Positions 3,688 through 52,654 of a stretch of DNA of 52,654 nt are shown here, one piece after another. Position 1 is the first letter of the stretch. Every line of letters starts with the position of its first letter. This DNA comes from an uncultured Tepidisphaerales bacterium (lineage in GTDB: Bacteria; Planctomycetota; Phycisphaerae; Tepidisphaerales; Tepidisphaeraceae), in assembly GCA_964416015.1 (NCBI GenBank), contig CAYQCT010000002.1, positions 9,109 to 61,762 on the forward strand, written 5' to 3'. Made by a program: the position numbers and the translations under genes. The notes beneath the pieces are model-generated. The model saw only the letters and a program-made list of their open reading frames with translations, had not been told where the DNA came from and ran no database searches.

Positions 3688-4968
3688 TCACGCGGGATCC
3701 GCTGCTTCAGGCGTCCGCATCTTAGCGGACGCAGCCGCCGCCCGAGCGTGCGCGGCGGCGAGACGGACGTACTTCTGCGACAGCACGCGGGCGGAGTAGC
3801 AACGCAACGTTCGCGCCCGCGCCGCCCGCGCCATCCGCGGCCACTTGGCACGTTCCGCAGCCGCGCGGGCGAAGGCTTCCGTCAAAGCGTCGGCGAGTCG
3901 CGGCGGGTCCGACTGCGGCGCCAGCCAGCCGGTCACGCCGTCCGCGACCGTCTCGGCCGGCCCGCCGAAGCCGTGGGCGACGACGGGACACCCCATCATC
4001 ATCGCCTCGATCACGCTCAGCCCGAACGGCTCGGCACTGACGCGGCTGTTGAGCCCGATGTCGCACGCCGCCCAGATGCGTCGCGGCTCGTCCGTCGCCG
4101 GCAAGACGTGCACGCGTCCGTCGGCCTCCGTCGCACGCCGGCGAACCTCGTCCAGGAACGCCGACTCGCCCTCGCCGACGACGAGCAAGTGGAACGGCTG
4201 CGCGAGGTCCCGGTTGACCCGCGTCACGGCGTCGATCGCGAGATGCGCGCCCTTGTCGGCCGTCAGCCGCGTGACGAGGCCAATGACCGGTGCGTCGTCG
4301 GCGATGTCGAGCTCGCGGCGAAGCTCAGCGCGGGCACCGGGAACGAGCCGCGGGTCGAACCGTTGCTCGTCGGTCATCGGCTGTACGATGTCGACCGCCT
4401 CGCCGGGCCGGAACGAGTCGGCCGTGTGCCGACTGTTGGCGAGCGGCAGGACGTCGTGCCGGCGGCAGAGGCGGTCGTAGAAGCGGCGATTCAGGCCGAG
4501 TCGGCCGACGTCGCCCACCGTGTTGGGCATGTCCCAGACGATCGGCAGCCCGAGCCGCTCGCCGACGCGGCCGACCAGCGGCAACAGGTTCGGCGAGACC
4601 GTCTGCAACAACACCGGCCCCTCCGTCGGCAGGGCGGCGACATCGGCGAGAGAGTCGGCAACTACGCCCGAATGCCGCCGGGCGTAGGTCAGCGTGCGGG
4701 TCAGGTTCGCAAGCTTCGCGAGGACGCCGCCGGCAAGCGTCGGCGGCTCCGGCAGGTCGACGGCGTCGAGCGGACCGCCGCCCATCGCCTTTGCCAGCCG
4801 GCCGTCGCGGCTGGTGAGGCTGAGTACGTGCACGTCCCAGTTGCGCCGCGGCAGCACGTCGCGGAGCGTCGAGAGCACCCGCGCGATGCCGCCGCCTTCG
4901 CTCCCAGCCGCGACGCATATCAGTCGACCGGCCGACGGCGGTCTGGAGGTTTCGCCCGCTCGCCTCAC
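3688..4968 (-). CDS. Glycosyltransferase family 4 (GT-B fold)
   Basis: RLICVAAGSEGGGIARVLSTL at the N-terminus. The C-terminal half has VVGEGE...LPATDEP...WAACDIGLNSRVSAEPFGLSVIEAMMMGCPVVAHGFGGPAETVADGVTGWL, the E-x7-E nucleotide-sugar motif. The start is uncertain: the track uses TTG at 5019, but that codon lies inside the T-tract of an upstream terminator hairpin. I prefer GTG at 4968. Confidence 0.85.
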   Translation of the reverse strand: MRRAGETSRPPSAGRLICVAAGSEGGGIARVLSTLRDVLPRRNWDVHVLSLTSRDGRLAKAMGGGPLDAVDLPEPPTLAGGVLAKLANLTRTLTYARRHSGVVADSLADVAALPTEGPVLLQTVSPNLLPLVGRVGERLGLPIVWDMPNTVGDVGRLGLNRRFYDRLCRRHDVLPLANSRHTADSFRPGEAVDIVQPMTDEQRFDPRLVPGARAELRRELDIADDAPVIGLVTRLTADKGAHLAIDAVTRVNRDLAQPFHLLVVGEGESAFLDEVRRRATEADGRVHVLPATDEPRRIWAACDIGLNSRVSAEPFGLSVIEAMMMGCPVVAHGFGGPAETVADGVTGWLAPQSDPPRLADALTEAFARAAAERAKWPRMARAARARTLRCYSARVLSQKYVRLAAAHARAAAASAKMRTPEAADPA

Positions 4969-44529: not shown

Positions 44530-47451
44530 CTACTCGTACTGCGACATCGGCGGGCAGCTGCATTGCAAGTTGCGGTCGCCGTAGACGTTGTCGATCCGAC
44601 CGATGCTGGGCCAAAACTTGTTCGCCCTGAGCGACTTCACCGGGTATGCCGCAACCTGACGCGAGTACGGACGCTGCCACTCGTCGGCCGTGACCGCCGC
44701 CGCCGTGTGCGGGGCGTTGTGCAACGGGTTGTCGTCGCTCGGCCAACCACCTTGCTCAATCTTTCGTATCTCCTCGCGAATCGCCAGCATCGCGTCGCAA
44801 AAGCGGTCGAGCTCGGCCAGATCTTCGCTCTCCGTCGGCTCGATCATCAGCGTCCCCGGGACCGGCCAACTCATTGTCGGAGCGTGAAAACCATAATCGA
44901 TCAACCGCTTGGCGACGTCCTCGACGGTCACATCCGCCGCCTTCTCAAAGGGGCGGCAGTCGACGACAAATTCGTGTGCGACGCGACCACTCGTTCCAAC
45001 GAACAGAACGTCAAAGTTGCCTTCAAGTCGTTTCGCCATGTAGTTGGCGTTGAGAATCGCAACTTCGCTTGCCCGTCGCAGACCGGCCGGGCCCATCATT
45101 GCAAGGTACATCCAGCTGATCGGCAGGATCGATGGGCTTCCGTACGGTGCGGCGCTAACGGCGTTCGCCTCCGTGTCCGTCGGCATGCCCGGCAGGAAGT
45201 CGCCCAGGTGCGGCTTGGCACAGATCGGCCCCATCCCCGGCCCGCCGCCGCCGTGGGGGATGCAGAAAGTTTTGTGCAGATTCAGGTGACAAACGTCCGC
45301 CCCAAAATCGCCCGGCCGGCAAAGGCCGACCTGGGCGTTCATGTTTGCGCCATCCATATAAACCTGCCCGCCGCGGTCGTGGATGACTTGGCAGACCTCG
45401 CGAATCTCCGCCTCGAAGACGCCGTGCGTGCTCGGGTATGTGACCATCAACGCTGCCAGATTCTCCGCGTGCTGGTCGGCCTTTCGCGTCAGGTCGTCCA
45501 GGTCGACATCGCCGTTCGGCCTCGTCTTGACGACGACGACTTTCATGCCGCAGATGACGGCACTCGCCGGGTTCGTGCCGTGCGCACTATCGGGTATCAG
45601 GCAAATCGTCCGGTTCTCATTGCCGCGGCTTCGGTGGTACCGGCGAATCGCGAGCAGCCCGGCGTACTCGCCCTGACTGCCCGCGTTCGGCTGCAGGCTG
45701 ACCGAAGGCAGGCCCGTCAGCTCGCCCAGCCAGTCCCGCAGGTCTGCAAACATCTCGGCATATCCTCGTGCTTGTTCGGCCGGAACGTACGGGTGCAGCT
45801 CGCCGAACTCGGGCCACGTTACGGGCAGCATTTCACTCGTCGCGTTCAGCTTCATCGTGCACGAACCGAGCGGGATCATGCCGTGCACGAGCGAGTAGTC
45901 CTTACTTTGCAATGAGTACAGGTAACGCGTCAACCCTGCTTCGCTGTGGTATTGATGAAACGTTGGGTGAGTGAGAAAGTCACTGTTCCGCCCGAGCGAC
46001 CCAAGTGGTGCCGCCGCGTCGGCTTCTTCGGCGAGTTCGGCGACGTTCAGTCGGAACGTGCTGCCGCCGGCAAAACACTCGATCAGCCGACGGACCTCGT
46101 CTGCGTCGCTGCGCTCGTCGAGCGTAATGCCGACCCGGCCGTCGCCGAAGTCGCGGAGGTTGAAACCTTGGCTTGACGCTGCCGACAGCACCGCCTCCAC
46201 CGGCAAGCCCTGCGGCTCAACGGCAATCGTGTCGAAGACCGGACCATCGCCGACGAAGTGGCCGAGACGCTGCATTCCTGCCGACAAAGCGGCCGTCAGC
46301 GTGCGGACGCGTGTCGCAATAAGCGTCAGTCCCTGCGGCCCGTGGTAGACGCCGAACATGCCGGCCATGACGGCGAGCAGAACTTGGGCCGTGCAGATGT
46401 TGCTCGTCGCCTTCTCGCGACGAATGTGCTGTTCCCGCGTCTGCAGCGTCAGCCGGTAGGCGACGTTGCCGTGGGCGTCTTTACTGACACCGACAATGCG
46501 ACCCGGCATGCGGCGTGCGTATTCCTCACGGCACGCCATGAAAGCCGCGTGCGGCCCGCCGTAGCCCATCGGCACGCCGAACCTCTGACTGTTTCCGATC
46601 GCGATGTCCGCGCCCCATTCGCCCGCCGGCCGAAGCAGGATCGACGCAAGAAGATCTGTCGCGGCGATTACAAGTCCACCGGCTTCGTGCACCGCATCAG
46701 CTAATTCGGTATAGTCTCGAACGGCACCGTCTGTCGCCGGGTACTGCACTAGAATTGCGAAGCAGTCCTCCGAAACATCCCGCATTCCGTGTTCCGTGTT
46801 CCACATTTCCACCTTGATCCCCATCGATCGCGCTCGCGTGCTCACGACGCCGATGGTTTGTGGGTGACAGTCGGCGGCGACGACGAACGTGTTCTTGGTC
46901 TTGCCTTTGAGGCTCTTGGCCATCGTCATTGCTTCGGCTGCCGCGGTGGCCTCGTCGAGGAGCGACGCGTTCGCCAGCGGCAGGGCGGTCAGGTCGGCGA
47001 TCATCTGCTGATAGACCAGCAACGCCTCGAGCCGACCTTGACTGATTTCGGCCTGGTACGGCGTGTAGGCCGTGTACCACGCGGGGTTCTCCAAGACGTT
47101 CCGCAGGATCGGCGGCGGCGTCCGGGTGGCGGCATACCCCTGTCCAATGAGGCTGCGGCGGACGTCGTTTTTCGCCGCCATCTCCCGGAGCCGCGCCAAG
47201 GCCGCCGACTCCGTCAATCCTCGGCCGAGACCCGACAGTTCGAGCTCTCGATCAAGCCGAATTTGCTCCGGCACCGCCTGACGCATGAGTTCGTCGATCG
47301 AGTCGACGCCGAGCGCATCGAGCATTGTCCGCTGCTGTTTCGCGTCCGGCCCAAGGTGCCGACGCGGGAAAGTATCGCAGGGCACGAGCAGGGCCTCCGT
47401 CGCCACGCCCGCCACATTGCCTGGGTCCGTCTGCACGTCAAGTAGCGTCAT
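44530..47451 (-). CDS. gcvP: Glycine dehydrogenase (decarboxylating), single-chain P protein
   Basis: 973-aa protein. FPRRHLGP...[46 protein letters not shown]...[19 protein letters not shown] (PLP Lys)...[21 protein letters not shown]. Confidence 0.95.
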
Positions 47452-47546
47452 CGCCGGATGTTACGCGGCCGCCGGGTCAGCTTCGGCCTGTTGCCGCGCT
47501 GCGTCTGGTGAAAGTTGCGCTGGCCAGGATCTGGTACAACACGCAG

Positions 47547-50318
47547 ATGCGAATTGCGTTGCTCTTGCTTTGTCTGCTTACCTCGCCGGCCTTCGCCGAG
47601 CCGACGAACTTGTTGCGAAACGGGTCGTTCGAGGGGGCGTTGCTGTACTGGCACGGTGAAGACGCGGCGAAGACGAAGGTCACGCTTTCCGAAGAGGCCC
47701 GGAGCGGGCGATACGCGTTGCGGATCGATGGCGACTGGGTGGCGAGTGCGCCGATTCCGATGGAGAAGGACGCGAACTACACGGTGAGTTTCTGGGCCAA
47801 AGCCGACGGCGAGGCGGGTCGCGTGAGCATCTCGGTCCCGCCGACGGCGCGGGAAGTCGCGCAAAAGGCGAAGAGGATTTGGACGAAGGGGGCCGGCAAG
47901 AGCGTCGCAGTCGATGGCGAGTGGACGCGGTACAGCGTGACGTTTCCGGCGGACGTGCCGACGACGGGGTTTTGGCCGCAGCCGCATTACATGGTTGTCA
48001 TCAGCGGGGCCAAGGAGAAGCCGGTGCTGGTCGACGGGATGACCGTGACGAAGGGCGAGACGCGGACGGAGGACTACGTCGGGCGGGCGGCGGTGGAGGT
48101 CGTTGTGGCGTGTACGAATCTGCCGGGCTATCGCGGGGCGGCGGGGAACGTGTTCGAGGTGGGCGAGACGGCAGAGATGGTGGCTTACATCAACAATGCG
48201 ATTGATGAGGCGCAGACGGTGCGGCCGGTTTGGCGGACGATGGATTACGAGAACGCGGCGCAGATGGGGGACGGGCATCTGGGTGATGCTGTGACGCTTG
48301 AGGCGGGCGAGACGGTGGCGGTGAAGCATTCGATTCCGCTGGCGTTCAGGGGGCTTGCGCTGGGCGAGGTTCTTGTGATCGATGAGGCGAACGCGATGAT
48401 CGACTCGAGTGCGTTTCCGTTGGCCACGCTGCCGTTTCCGATGGAGTCAAAGGAAGGGAACTTTGACGAGCGGTTCGGCGGAAGCTTCGCCGGCGGGGTC
48501 GAAGTGCTGGACAAGTTTCAGCGAATCGGGTTCGGGTGGACGCGGTGGTGGCCGAAGCAGAAGTGGCACAACATGGAGCCGGAGGAAGGCCAGTACGACT
48601 GGCAGAACGAGAAGTATCAGCAGGCCTTCGACCGCGGCGTGGCGTGTCACGTGACGCTCTACGGGTGGCCCAAGTGGGCGATGGAGAAGGGTCATCCGCT
48701 GCCGAAGGACATGCGGTGGAAGGCGGACGATCCGCGGTGGGAGGACCTGTCGGTCGAGACATCATGGGACCGTTTCATCGTCGCGGCGGTCGAGAACTTT
48801 CGTGGGAAGCCGGTCGTCTTCGAGATCAGCAACGAGCCCGGCTTCGACGATTGGGACGACTATGGCGACGAGTACGTGAAGTTCAACGAGCGGACGGCGG
48901 CGCTAATCAAGAAGACGGACGCGGAAGCCGTCGTCATGGTGAACAATACCTACAAGAACCCGAGTCGGCCGAACGCGAGGCTACTTGCGAAGGGCGATCT
49001 GTCGAACATCGACGTCTGGTCGTGGCACGACTACAAAGCCGGGTGGTTGATCGACGCGACGGGCATCAAGCAAATGCGGCAGATGCTCGATGAAGCCGGC
49101 ACGAATGAAGGCGGCGGAGAGCACATCGAAATCTGGTTCAACGAAGGCTGGGCCTTTACGAACACGGCCGTCGATCAACCGATCGCGGCGACGAGTTTGA
49201 CCGCGGCTGAGAGTACGAACGCGATCTTCAACAGTGTGGTCGAGGCGACCGTGAACGGGCAGGAGAAGACGGTGCTCTTTCATACTGCCTACGGCACGCA
49301 TGGCATGAGCTTCTGGGACTACTCGATTCCCGGGACAATGCTGTGGGACTGGTACAGCTATCCGACGCCGCTCGTGCCGGCGTGGAACGTGCTCAATCAT
49401 CACATCGGCCTGAGCGACGCGATCGGCCACGTCCGGCCGATCGGCGGGAACCTGGCGATCTTTCAGGATCTTCGCAACGGCCGCGGCGTGATGATCGCAT
49501 ACGCGGACCGGTCGGCGACAAAGGACGTGACGATCGAGCTGCCGGCCTTCGGCACGAAGCTGATGGCGGAGGACGCGATGGGCAACGCGGAGGAGTTCGA
49601 TGGGACGACGCTCACGCTTTCGCAGACGGGGCGGCCGGTGCTGCTGTACGCGGCGGACAAGTCGCTTACGGGACAGGCGATGCACGACGCGGTGCTGCCG
49701 CTGGATCGGAGCAACGCGGGCTTCGCTACGACAAACGGCGGGTTGACCCGCTACGCCCTGCCGCCGGCGTGGGAGGGCGTGGAGAAAGGGTCGAGCGAGG
49801 GCAGCGTCGTGTCGAGCGACGGCGTGCCGATCTGGAGGGTCGAGCAGGTTTGGCCGTTCGAGCCGATGGAGGCGGGCAGCTACCGCCCGCTCGTCTGGGG
49901 CGGCACGCAGTGGGTCGCCAGCAGTGACGGCTTCGGCGGACAGCCGCAGGTGAAGATGAAGGACGCGTCGCTCGAGTTCGGCACACGAGCTAGCCACGGC
50001 ACACCGCCCCGCGTGCGGACGGCAGCGTTGTCGTTCATCGTACCGGAAGACGGCAACTACCAGATTACGGGCTCGGCCCGCGTGCGGCTTTGGGAAGGCA
50101 AGAGCCCGACGAAGTTGTTCGTGCTTCACCAATCCGGCGATTCGATGGCGAAAGTGAAGGAGTACGTCATCCCGAACAAGGAGATCGCCCGCTTCGAAGG
50201 CGTGACGGTCGAGGCCGCCGCGGGCGACGTGCTACGGTTCGTCCCGCAGATCGAAGGCATGTACGCCGGCGGTACGCTATGGCTACGCGATCTGGCGGTG
50301 ACGCAACAAAGTCGATGA
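47547..50318 (+). CDS. Secreted glycoside hydrolase-like protein (clan GH-A TIM barrel) with N-terminal CBM-like jelly-roll
   Basis: Track ORF trimmed to the ATG at 47547: MRIALLLLCLLTSPAFAEP, a classical Sec signal. NLLRNGSFEGALLYWHG is a CBM4/9-type start. WTRWWPKQKWHNMEPEEGQYDW...PVVFEISNEPG contains the NEP acid/base motif. The long C-terminal beta-rich region is of unknown function. Confidence 0.75.
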   Translation: MRIALLLLCLLTSPAFAEPTNLLRNGSFEGALLYWHGEDAAKTKVTLSEEARSGRYALRIDGDWVASAPIPMEKDANYTVSFWAKADGEAGRVSISVPPTAREVAQKAKRIWTKGAGKSVAVDGEWTRYSVTFPADVPTTGFWPQPHYMVVISGAKEKPVLVDGMTVTKGETRTEDYVGRAAVEVVVACTNLPGYRGAAGNVFEVGETAEMVAYINNAIDEAQTVRPVWRTMDYENAAQMGDGHLGDAVTLEAGETVAVKHSIPLAFRGLALGEVLVIDEANAMIDSSAFPLATLPFPMESKEGNFDERFGGSFAGGVEVLDKFQRIGFGWTRWWPKQKWHNMEPEEGQYDWQNEKYQQAFDRGVACHVTLYGWPKWAMEKGHPLPKDMRWKADDPRWEDLSVETSWDRFIVAAVENFRGKPVVFEISNEPGFDDWDDYGDEYVKFNERTAALIKKTDAEAVVMVNNTYKNPSRPNARLLAKGDLSNIDVWSWHDYKAGWLIDATGIKQMRQMLDEAGTNEGGGEHIEIWFNEGWAFTNTAVDQPIAATSLTAAESTNAIFNSVVEATVNGQEKTVLFHTAYGTHGMSFWDYSIPGTMLWDWYSYPTPLVPAWNVLNHHIGLSDAIGHVRPIGGNLAIFQDLRNGRGVMIAYADRSATKDVTIELPAFGTKLMAEDAMGNAEEFDGTTLTLSQTGRPVLLYAADKSLTGQAMHDAVLPLDRSNAGFATTNGGLTRYALPPAWEGVEKGSSEGSVVSSDGVPIWRVEQVWPFEPMEAGSYRPLVWGGTQWVASSDGFGGQPQVKMKDASLEFGTRASHGTPPRVRTAALSFIVPEDGNYQITGSARVRLWEGKSPTKLFVLHQSGDSMAKVKEYVIPNKEIARFEGVTVEAAAGDVLRFVPQIEGMYAGGTLWLRDLAVTQQSR

Positions 50319-50365: not shown

Positions 50366-52654
50366 CTATAGAAGGCTCACCGGATCCACGTCGACGGCGA
50401 CGCGGTCGTTTTGCGACAGATGCCCGGCGGCGCGGACGGTGGCGAGCGTGCGTTGCAGCGGCTGGGGTGTGGCAGCGGTGAGGACGATCTGCTGGCGAAA
50501 GTAGCCGGCGATGCGGGCGATGGCGCACGGCATCGGACCCTCGATCGTCGTGTCGCCGGCGGCGGCGTCGGTGAAGACGCCGGTCAGTGCGGCGGCCTTC
50601 GTCATCACCGTTTCCTCGTCACGGTCTCGCAGGACAATTCGCACCATCCGGCCGAACGGCGGCAGGTTCGTCTGGCGACGCGCCTCCAGCTCCCGCGTCG
50701 CGAAGCCGGCGAAGTCCTGGCGAAGCGCAGCCCGAATCGTGTCGTCGTAGGGCTGGAACGTCTGCAGCACGACCCGCCCCGGCACGTCCCCGCGACCGGC
50801 CCGGCCGGCGACCTGCGTGATCAATGCGAAGGTCCGCTCGGCCGCGCGGAAGTCGGGCAGGCTCAAACTCGTGTCGCCACTGATAATTCCGACAAGACTC
50901 ACGTTCGGGAAGTCGAGTCCCTTGGCAATCATCTGCGTCCCCATTAGCACATCAACGTCACCGGCGGCGAAGCGGCGAAGCACCTTCTCATAGTCGCCCG
51001 CGTTCCGCATGGAATCGGAGTCGACGCGTTCAAATCGAACGTCGGGAAACTTGCGAGTTATCTCTTCCTCGACACGTTGCGTGCCGAGTCCGAAGAGCGA
51101 CAGATTGCCGCCGGCCCGTTTGGCGGCATTGTCAAGCGGATCGACCGCGAGGCAGTAGTGGCAGTGCAGTTGGCCGGTGTGCAACGCCTTGACGAACTGG
51201 GCTCCGATCGGCCCCTCGCCGGCGGTGCGGTGGTAAGTCATCGTCGCGTCGCAGAACCGACACGTCACCGGCTCGTCCGTGCTCGGGTTGTAGACGAAGT
51301 TGGCGTAACCGCGGCGATTCAGAAGAAGAATTGCCTGTTGGCCTTGCTCGATCGTGTGCTTGAGCAGCGTCTCGAGCCGCGGCGAGAGCAGGTGGACGCC
51401 CTTGCGAAGGCGGGCGACTTCCTTGAGGTCGACGACCTCGATCGTCGGCATCGGGCGGTCGTGCACGCGGGCGGGGAGCTCGTGCAGGCGGTGCGGATGA
51501 GCCGGAGATCGCGAAGACGCGAAGGCGCGAAGAGAGAGGCGAGAATCAGATAATGTTGAGCCCTCTCCTTCTGAATCCACTTCCTTCCTTCGCTTCTCTC
51601 TTCGCCCCTTCGCGTCTTCGCGATCTCCGAACGCCCGCAAGTACGATTCCAACGATGGCGTAGCACTTCCCAGTACGACGGGACACGAATGTAGTTGTCC
51701 TCGCTTTATCGCAACGTCGCGTGCGTGGTAGCGTGGGGCCGTGTCCTGTTTGTAGGAAGATTCGTGCTCCTCGTCGACGACGAATAACCCCGGCTGCGGG
51801 ACGGGAGCGAAGATGGCGGAGCGGGCGCCGACCACGACGTCGGCGCGGCCCGAGGCGATGTCGCGCCAGTGGCGGTGACGGGCGCCTGCGGAGAGGCCGC
51901 TGTGGAGGACGGCGACGCGGCGGAAACGTTCGGTGAATCGCCGCACCGTTTGTGGCGTCAGGGCAATTTCGGGAACGAGCATCACCGCCTGCTTGCCGGC
52001 GGCGATGGCCTCGGCGATGAGGCGGAGGTAGACCTCGGTCTTGCCGCTGCCGGTGACGCCGAGCAGGAGGTCCGTGCCGAAGACGCCTTCGCGGACACGC
52101 GGCGTCATCGCCTCGACGGCGGCCGCCTGGTGCGGATTGAGCGTCGGCAGCACCGCGTCTTCGTTCACTGCCGGGCCGGCGTCGCGGGGTGTCGCGTCGG
52201 CGTCGGGGGCGTCGGCTTCGCTGCGGATCGTGACGACGCCGAGCTGTTGCAGCTTGCGGACCGTCGGCACGGTTACGCCCGCTTCGCTGGCGAGTCGCAC
52301 CGTGTCGATGGCGGTGTCCTGCGGAAGTTGCAGGAGTCGCGCGAGCAGGCCGCGACGCTTCTTGGCTGTGGTTTTCTCGAACAACGTCTGGATCTCGTCG
52401 TGCGGCATCGCCAGCCGCACGCGGCTCGTCGAGCCGACGCCGATCCGCTTTTTTACCGCGCCCGGCACCATGCTCTCGAGGACAAGGCCCAGCGCGCAGC
52501 AGTAGTACCGGCCGATCCAGCGAGCCAATTCCATCATCGGTCCGGCGACGAGCTGTCGGTCGTCGTCGATGCCGATGACCGGCTTCAGCTTCGTCGCAGC
52601 AAACCCGGCGGCGGCCTCGTCGAACGTGTCCCGGACGGACACGACAAAGCCGAA
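50366..52654 (-). CDS. priA: Primosomal protein N' (replication restart helicase PriA); N-terminus lies beyond the window end
   Basis: LLLGVTGSGKTEVYLRLIAEAI (Walker A), LFVVDEEHESSYKQ (DExH), the Cys-rich Zn region CRFCDATMTYH...LHCHYCL, and LMGTQMIAKGLDFPNVSLVG. The frame stays open through 52654 (..FGFVVSVRD..), so the GTG at 52642 is probably not the true start. Confidence 0.9.
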   Translation of the reverse strand, partial: FGFVVSVRDTFDEAAAGFAATKLKPVIGIDDDRQLVAGPMMELARWIGRYYCCALGLVLESMVPGAVKKRIGVGSTSRVRLAMPHDEIQTLFEKTTAKKRRGLLARLLQLPQDTAIDTVRLASEAGVTVPTVRKLQQLGVVTIRSEADAPDADATPRDAGPAVNEDAVLPTLNPHQAAAVEAMTPRVREGVFGTDLLLGVTGSGKTEVYLRLIAEAIAAGKQAVMLVPEIALTPQTVRRFTERFRRVAVLHSGLSAGARHRHWRDIASGRADVVVGARSAIFAPVPQPGLFVVDEEHESSYKQDTAPRYHARDVAIKRGQLHSCPVVLGSATPSLESYLRAFGDREDAKGRREKRRKEVDSEGEGSTLSDSRLSLRAFASSRSPAHPHRLHELPARVHDRPMPTIEVVDLKEVARLRKGVHLLSPRLETLLKHTIEQGQQAILLLNRRGYANFVYNPSTDEPVTCRFCDATMTYHRTAGEGPIGAQFVKALHTGQLHCHYCLAVDPLDNAAKRAGGNLSLFGLGTQRVEEEITRKFPDVRFERVDSDSMRNAGDYEKVLRRFAAGDVDVLMGTQMIAKGLDFPNVSLVGIISGDTSLSLPDFRAAERTFALITQVAGRAGRGDVPGRVVLQTFQPYDDTIRAALRQDFAGFATRELEARRQTNLPPFGRMVRIVLRDRDEETVMTKAAALTGVFTDAAAGDTTIEGPMPCAIARIAGYFRQQIVLTAATPQPLQRTLATVRAAGHLSQNDRVAVDVDPVSLL
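51504..51628. repeat. About 125-bp palindromic (MITE/REP/RPE-like) element embedded in-frame in priA
   Basis: The left arm at 51504-51544 is GGAGATCGCGAAGACGCGAAGGCGCGAAGAGAGAGGCGAGA. The reverse complement of the right arm at 51588-51628 is GGAGATCGCGAAGACGCGAAGGGGCGAAGAGAGAAGCGAAG. About 37 of 41 positions are identical. The 43-bp centre is AT-richer (atcagataatgttgagccctctccttctgaatccacttccttc). Confidence 0.75.

Follow-up and report, generated by a model that had tools for sequence, protein, structure and literature searches.

Among the described bacterial repeats, the Rickettsia palindromic elements (RPEs) are one of the systems closest to the element reported here. They are palindromes of ~100-150 bp found in-frame in housekeeping genes, whose proteins gain extra surface peptides that the fold can accommodate (PMC10969869). 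We have studied a 127-nt palindrome in a 52,654-nucleotide stretch of DNA (hereafter, the window) from an uncultured Tepidisphaerales bacterium (phylum Planctomycetota; contig CAYQCT010000002.1), where it lies within priA, the gene of primosomal protein N', a replication-restart helicase. The palindrome is an insert between the two RecA-like lobes of PriA and not native PriA sequence. Comparison with related loci showed that the same priA site was emptied and refilled by unrelated hairpin elements across the wider clade, which makes it an insertion and excision hotspot. The new aspects relative to the known systems are the tandem-unit architecture of the element and the recurrent priA site.

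The window element resembled the RPEs in its length, in its in-frame location at a structurally permissive position of PriA and in leaving both lobes intact in an AlphaFold model. The original prediction, made from the letters of the window, had recognized an RPE pattern, and this stood as far as behavior is concerned. The host belongs to another phylum, there was no evidence of a sequence relationship, the arms are tandem octamers and the element encodes no conserved peptide of its own. Given the tandem-octamer architecture and the Planctomycetota host, membership in the RPE-1 to RPE-10 families is unlikely. Moreover, RPE insertions are one-off events spread across many genes, whereas the priA site was hit repeatedly by many families. 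Because many hairpin families recur at this one site, the analogy holds for behavior and not for membership.

Repetitive extragenic palindromic (REP) sequences and REPINs are dispersed ~100-nt hairpin doublets of inverted short repeats that persist in lineages (PMC3116915, PMC3733652) and are mobilized by REP-associated tyrosine transposases (RAYTs). The window element likewise has two inverted repeats forming a long hairpin, and a genuine GTAG REPIN occupied the same priA site in one relative (locus L210), with GTAG REPs present between genes in others (L121, L123 and L204). In REPINs each repeat is an imperfect palindrome of 20-40 nt with a GTAG or CGTC head, whereas the window arms have no such head and are not self-palindromic; and while REPs are extragenic by definition, the window copy lies in priA with no RAYT gene linked to it. 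The window element thus does not fit the REP families and is unlikely to belong to the RPEs.

Bacterial MITEs, or miniature inverted-repeat transposable elements (ERIC, BOX, Correia/NEMIS), are small and non-coding, have terminal inverted repeats and are sometimes found in-frame in open reading frames (ORFs) (PMC10969869). The window element also has terminal inverted repeats, is shorter than ~300 bp and has no coding capacity of its own. It differs from MITEs in that its whole arm is a tandem array and not a transposase-binding terminal inverted repeat, and in that no target-site duplication was seen at the priA copies or the intergenic relatives, where the palindrome fades into the flanks. 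We know of no cognate insertion sequence for it.

Tandem 7-nt units characterize the short tandemly repeated repetitive (STRR) sequences of cyanobacteria and the TAACTGA repeats of Beggiatoaceae, which are mostly intergenic, patchily distributed across phyla and of unknown mechanism (PMC4679880). These have been described mainly as direct repeats, and that work reports no hairpin arrangement, octamers, in-frame coding copies or recurrent site (PMC4679880). A literature search with the repeat strings found no paper containing one, and neither the hairpin class nor the priA hotspot was described in the searched literature on STRR, small dispersed repeats, and PriA combined with Planctomycetes. 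In 1997, Vioque reportedly found inverted STRR heptamers lengthening helix P12 of the RNase P RNA in heterocystous cyanobacteria, which would parallel a unit-array hairpin tolerated in a functional gene.

The palindrome consists of two 40-nt arms, 47 nt apart, that pair at 38 of 40 positions (95%; coordinates in Table 1). Near-perfect inverted repeats around an AT-richer core had been predicted. The inverted repeats were recovered far beyond chance with coordinates agreeing within 1-2 nt, and the loop had a GC content of 0.45, compared with 0.62-0.65 in the arms and 0.66 in the priA coding sequence. Folded as one long hairpin, the sense strand had a free energy of -88.8 kcal/mol (z = -8.7), which 0/200 shuffles reached. 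The 30-nt arm core matched only itself and its partner arm within the window (shuffles with a match, 0/100), and the palindrome was the sole long inverted repeat with separated arms in the 52.6 kb. With a looser threshold nothing else exceeded the shuffle level (longest chance arm in 20 shuffles, 21 nt), and there was no second hairpin repeat in the window outside priA. Each arm was made of three tandem octamers CGCGAAGN, a feature absent from the original prediction. The arms open with CGGAGATCGCG, consist of direct octamers and are not self-palindromic.

A chimeric fold-back in the contig could mimic such a structure, as perfect palindromes can come from amplification or assembly errors. An artefact of this kind seems practically negligible: the insert keeps the reading frame, its arms differ from perfect pairing at two positions, homologous hairpins lie at the same codons in independent ENA, JGI and NCBI assemblies, and the purging of stop codons described below is explicable only by translation.

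The priA ORF comprises 758 codons (50366..52642, minus strand) and its frame is open to the window end, hence ~60-70 N-terminal PriA residues would lie beyond the window. The palindrome starts in codon F338, at its third base, and extends to P380; its translation is GDREDAKGRREKRRKEVDSEGEGSTLSDSRLSLRAFASSRSP. An in-frame insert of ~42 residues in PriA had been proposed, its flanks being contiguous in other PriA proteins, separated by ~10 residues, and the alignments agreed. Escherichia coli PriA (6dcr) aligned to residues 165-334 and 386-755 of the query, with ~10 residues opposite 51 in the query. The spacing from GSATPxxE to NRRG was 62-69 residues in ~70 distant PriA genes and 67 in the close relative P0013 (L123), compared with 108 in the window, 109 in L121 and 117 in L122. 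The insert was thus lineage-specific, being absent from the distant PriAs and from P0013. In the AlphaFold model (mean predicted local distance difference test score, pLDDT, 76) both lobes were folded with confidence and the insert was placed outside them, a point that had been left to modeling: residues 339-358 extended a native helix starting at 331, residues 361-379 were disordered (pLDDT <50) and the conserved fold was back at 384.

We have then compared 120 PriA relatives (Planctomycetota, Phycisphaerae-type), calling an insert when the linker between the lobes exceeded 73 residues. This was the case in 110 of them, with a median linker of 98 and a maximum of 196 residues, the inserts themselves ranging from ~0 to 130 residues. 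Such lengths, together with the quick replacement of content, would also be expected if the linker were a hypervariable stretch of protein on which selection for diversity or length acts, for example to tune inter-lobe motion or to evade an inhibitor, with hairpins as the raw material. The stop-free translation of the arms and the predicted helix in the first half of the window insert, continuing the native one, fit this idea as well. We nevertheless regard it as improbable, for the peptides are mere translations of the repeats and share no property across families (basic or acidic, Pro-rich, hydrophobic), half of the window insert is predicted to be disordered, empty alleles occur within the same clade, and DNA palindromy, irrelevant to this model, is the most conserved feature.

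Seven hairpin families were confirmed in DNA at the priA site. The CGCRAAG family of the window was found there at five loci; others had octamers or heptamers of different sequence, or the GTAG REPIN (Table 1). An excision scar of type GAAGGCACGGTGCCTTC was also found. Approximately seven further families and at least ten compound inserts were indicated by peptide periodicity (7 or 8 residues, with a partner-arm translation downstream). A protein-level score of translated palindromy against shuffles was weakly discriminating (query z = 2.7), and the family calls therefore rest on peptide motifs and DNA. Many inserts had decayed beyond recognizable palindromy, and those of L124-L126 folded no better than the empty site. 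The original prediction of an RPE-like insertion was right in that the palindrome is in-frame, lineage-specific and located in an essential gene; the insertion was not a single event, given the 110 of 120 homologues with an insert. Nor did the orthologues share a homologous non-palindromic segment across the phylum, which would have spoken against a mobile element: their inserts were palindromic and mostly non-homologous to each other.

In a neighbor-joining tree of PriA with the linker masked, the nearest labeled neighbor shared the insert family in 0.39 of cases versus 0.10 after permutation, so that families clustered above chance. At the same time, PriA pairs 94-97% identical outside the linker carried entirely different inserts (P0062 with the REPIN and P0069 with GGGTTCA units; P0061 and P0088; P0043 and P0054) and, conversely, the same family occurred in PriAs merely 60-70% identical. 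This bears on the idea of a single ancient hairpin that evolved in place, its families arising without further insertion by concerted unit evolution (a mutated unit spreading through slippage and conversion from arm to arm). Several octamer families do differ by only 1-2 bases per unit (ACGCGAAG, ACGCGGAG, ACAAGGAG; GCGCGAAG, GCACGAAG), and in the window subclade CGCRAAG was inherited vertically with G/A changes coordinated over all units of both arms. However, heptamer families and the GTAG REPIN are not derivable from octamer units, one hairpin sat inside the loop of another, the same families existed as independent intergenic elements, and wholly different inserts in such similar PriAs leave this idea already contradicted for the wider clade; overall we find it very improbable.

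Table 1. Coordinates and composition of the priA palindrome in the window and of the hairpins at the same priA site in relatives
Feature	Position	Strand	Description
priA (primosomal protein N')	50366..52654	-	Frame open to window end
In-frame insert	51503..51628	-	PriA G339-P380, 42 aa; ~41 aa longer than the empty site of P0013
5' arm (priA sense)	51590..51629	-	CGGAGAT + octamers CGCGAAGA CGCGAAGG GGCGAAGA + GAGAAGCGA; encodes GDREDAKGRREKR
Loop	51543..51589	-	47 nt, GC 0.45, weak inner pairing; encodes roughly RKEVDSEGEGSTLSDS
3' arm (priA sense)	51503..51542	-	TCGCCTCTCT CTTCGCGC CTTCGCGT CTTCGCGATCTCCG; encodes RLSLRAFASSRSP; pairs 38/40 with the 5' arm
GSATPSLE, residues 325-332	51647..51670	-	Conserved motif closing helicase lobe 1; lies just upstream of where the insert sits
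LHELPARV, residues 386-393	51464..51487	-	Conserved; the PriA fold resumes here after the insert
L204	priA site		GACGCGGN octamers (GACGCGG), seven TGCAAAT heptamers nested in the loop, -247 kcal/mol
L205	priA site		GGGTTCA heptamers
L206	priA site		GGCACGAA octamers (GGCACGA)
L209	priA site		CGGACAA heptamers
L210	priA site		Textbook GTAG REPIN, 28-nt arms with perfect pairing
L211	priA site		Scar GAAGGCAC.G.GTGCCTTC, the base of an L206-type hairpin with the interior deleted; 17 nt

The translation of these hairpins left its mark on their sequence. The octamer units seen had no stop codon in three frames on either strand, the complement of GGGTTCA not being stop-free. Since the arms are stop-free in all frames, insertions with a length multiple of three would be readable. 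In the window element the stop codons were confined to the loop, where on each strand they fall in frame 0, a frame that is not used, and four of six frames were open end to end. In the L205 insert (2597-2776), every would-be in-frame TGA of the TGAACCC arm was CGA, and the sole such site within the paired stem had a compensating G in the opposite arm. L205 thus illustrates clearly how translation can edit a palindrome while its pairing is kept. Stops in translated arms were removed by purifying selection.

The best PriA homologues of the window were only 72% identical and came from Planctomycetota metagenome-assembled genomes (MAGs); at ~60% identity the named matches were Tepidisphaeraceae, Humisphaera and Phycisphaerales. 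In the window subclade, the same codons of four loci (L121, L122, L207 and L208) carried a hairpin homologous to that of the window (-98 to -111 kcal/mol), made of CGCAAAGN units in which a G-to-A difference from the window was present in both arms. The relatives had one or two copies per 20 kb, the extra copies being intergenic. In L121, L122 and L207, an intergenic copy with the same termini (CGGAGAACGCAAAG...CTTTGCGTTCTCCG) lay 1.4-2.5 kb from priA, and in L207 the arms of the priA and intergenic copies were almost identical while their loops differed. The CGCRAAG element was inherited vertically in the window subclade, had decayed in some lineages and was lost in one. The intergenic CGCAAAG hairpins of L122 (5862-5989) and L207 (8759-8884) were syntenic, between a PALP-domain gene and a ~306-aa gene upstream of priA; because of this synteny, intergenic copies can also be old and vertically inherited. 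Whether the loop is inverted (flip-flop) in L122 relative to the window was considered and rejected, as the test is confounded: the shared GTGGATTCAGA belongs to the inner palindromy and occurs in both orientations.

Arm positions were paired within elements in 302 of 329 cases, while the same arm was 76-92% identical between orthologues. This showed that the arms co-evolve and are homogenized. The mismatches between the arms on the sense strand were 5 G.U, 9 A.C and 13 others; with no G.U excess there was no sign of selection on the mRNA fold, and such selection is not indicated.

Complementary arms that diverge between orthologues would also be expected of a functional cis-element of priA that selection retains while its sequence turns over. 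It could work in the mRNA, as a target of RNase III or by pausing translation between the lobes, or as a DNA hairpin bound by PriA, a protein that binds hairpin-like primosome assembly sites. A hairpin was present at the site in 10 of the 11 priA loci of relatives with DNA, the eleventh having a palindromic scar, although the sequences were unrelated; the stop-avoiding change of L205 was mirrored in the other arm; and the site was filled even where the surrounding DNA had no such repeats. The original prediction had offered an intragenic attenuator as an alternative, and this found no support: attenuators combine a GC-rich stem with a U-run, and no T-run or terminator-like site was found at 51503-51629 on either strand, the sequence 3' of the stem being GCTCATCCGC. 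No promoter feature was found at the hairpin. In Rfam 15 no family reached its gathering score on either strand, the only matches being generic miRNA-precursor hairpins seen on both strands (≤49 bits versus gathering scores of 60-168). Besides, P0013 and ~10 other homologues do without an insert, L211 retains only its scar, many inserts are now non-palindromic low-complexity sequence (those of L124-L126 fold like the empty site), the G.U excess expected of an RNA structure is missing, and intergenic copies of the class are equally arm-complementary outside the priA context. A cis-acting role thus appears quite unlikely.

We have scanned one genome per species for three CGCRAAGN units. The arm motif was found at at least 120 loci, in hosts including Acidobacteriota, Chloroflexota, Cyanobacteria, several proteobacterial classes, Verrucomicrobiota, Planctomycetota, Bacteroidota, Chlamydiota and Methanothrix, and in isolates such as Sorangium cellulosum So0157-2; the octamer recurred in more than a dozen phyla plus Methanothrix. 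None of the listed loci appeared to come from the window's own organism, judging by appearance and with no direct test. A strict hairpin arrangement was present at at least 64 of 132 sites, and by eye many others had diverged partner arms. Adjacent units were spaced by 8 nt in 179 of 218 pairs, with medians of 3 units per arm and a 31-nt loop, and the purine-rich CGCRAAG arm was 5' in 51 of 64 hairpins, as in the priA copy. From the scanned loci we have defined a tandem-unit-arm hairpin class with at least three tandem 7-8-nt units per arm, a reverse-complement partner and the purine-rich arm 5', all of which the window element displays. The class appears pan-bacterial, and no description of it was found in the searched literature. 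The original reading as an RPE-like repeat found support in the dispersal of the arm motif, as seen in these loci in many phyla, in the intergenic copies with the same termini in relatives and in an in-frame copy in truB.

About 130 of the 132 class sites were intergenic or in spurious ORFs, whereas the window copy is inside priA. Thirteen sites lay in long open frames, one of which was a genuine gene, truB, and this was the sole other clearly intragenic copy among the 132 cross-phylum sites listed. It was a CGCAAAG-unit hairpin, in-frame in truB (LCVFASLRETEKDLFAQRRKDAKD) at ~1669-1738 of L083, a Sphingomonadales MAG (JAYVGQ010000066.1). A profile search with the translated insert for other host genes gave 110 candidates of which none scored, the query being too short and of low complexity. 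Tandem-octamer hairpin loci were also shared with other unit families (GCAGATGAAC-type, CACAAAG and GGCTTGGCG). In Leucobacter sp. M11 (L113, ~4560-4830) a one-stranded tandem array of at least 25 related octamers (GACGTGAA, GACGCAAA, GAAGCAAA) had no hairpin and adjoined a masked stretch.

The reading that we consider probable is a selfish or neutral, non-autonomous hairpin repeat with tandem-unit arms that resides in a permissive PriA linker, itself a recurrent insertion and excision hotspot. Tolerance would come from stop-free arms that keep the frame readable and from a product that may project from the lobe junction as a charged helical extension followed by a disordered loop. The complementarity of the arms may be maintained by a strand-symmetric process at the DNA level, likely template switching or gene conversion between arms or genomic copies, plus unit slippage. 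No benefit to PriA would be needed, and the insert would be neutral or mildly deleterious for the protein.

Several points weigh against this reading. Only seven families were confirmed in DNA, the others being suggested by peptide periodicity alone, and the tree was not bootstrapped. The priA site was occupied even though the rest of the window and the flanks of L205 and L206 were free of hairpin repeats, an outcome that a purely passive neutral-spacer model does not predict. That inserts are replaced so often between near-identical PriAs implies that the site is targeted or that its local rate is unusually high, for which we found no mechanism; the hairpin class could be linked to no transposase, and no target-site duplication was visible. 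Two candidate explanations of the site recurrence also failed. As a class, the elements did not prefer the loops of existing hairpins for insertion (an inverted repeat enclosed 3-5% of elements versus 1-1.6% of controls, with exact ones no commoner), nesting being common only at the priA site. Nor did the WRV and LTLP codons of the native flanks form a conserved stem that could be the target, since their complementarity did not regularly exceed that of shuffles (0.04-0.94 of the shuffles reached the observed value).

The priA linker could instead be an actively targeted landing site for several hairpin classes, comparable to a safe harbour or to a homing site in an essential gene. In one version, the hairpin would be a protected master copy that survives genome-wide purges in an indispensable gene and reseeds intergenic copies; in the other, it would have been co-opted to control PriA, itself a recognizer of hairpin and fork DNA. 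Such targeting is consistent with the replacement in PriAs 94-97% identical, with the repeat-free surroundings and with the near-identity of the L207 arms. On balance we hold it to be unlikely and prefer the selfish or neutral repeat in a permissive linker.

The flanks of the related loci (~200 kb, ~170 genes) contained ~35 strong hairpins, all intergenic except for those in priA and three weak matches that are GC-rich and chance-like. In some relatives GTAG-headed REP palindromes filled most intergenic spacers near priA (L121, 483-558, 1066-1134, 5407-5462 and 8737-8811; L123, 12355-12422 and 13867-13976; L204, 3453-3526), and none was present in the 52.6 kb of the window. An ISL3-family transposase gene, split in two ORFs, lay 5 kb from priA in L209 (17040-18265, the P0089 contig) and had no visible relation to the hairpins. 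In the window, just past the 3' end of priA and on the opposite strand, a 997-aa ORF (47325-50318, plus strand) encodes a secreted-looking protein with a hydrophobic N-terminal segment.

Taken together, these findings extend RPE-like in-frame insertion to the Planctomycetota and to a hairpin class built of tandem 7-8-nt units. At one codon-level site the full life cycle of such repeats could be followed, from insertion and nesting through stop purging and decay to excision with a scar. Random insertion would not be expected to recur in this way, which points to some mechanism that targets or retains hairpin repeats, including REPINs. For annotation there is a warning, as what looks like a low-complexity "domain" in proteins of this kind is repeat DNA that is translated. 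The linker between lobes 1 and 2 of PriA is a naturally validated permissive site that takes ~0-130 extra residues, which makes it useful for tagging and engineering.

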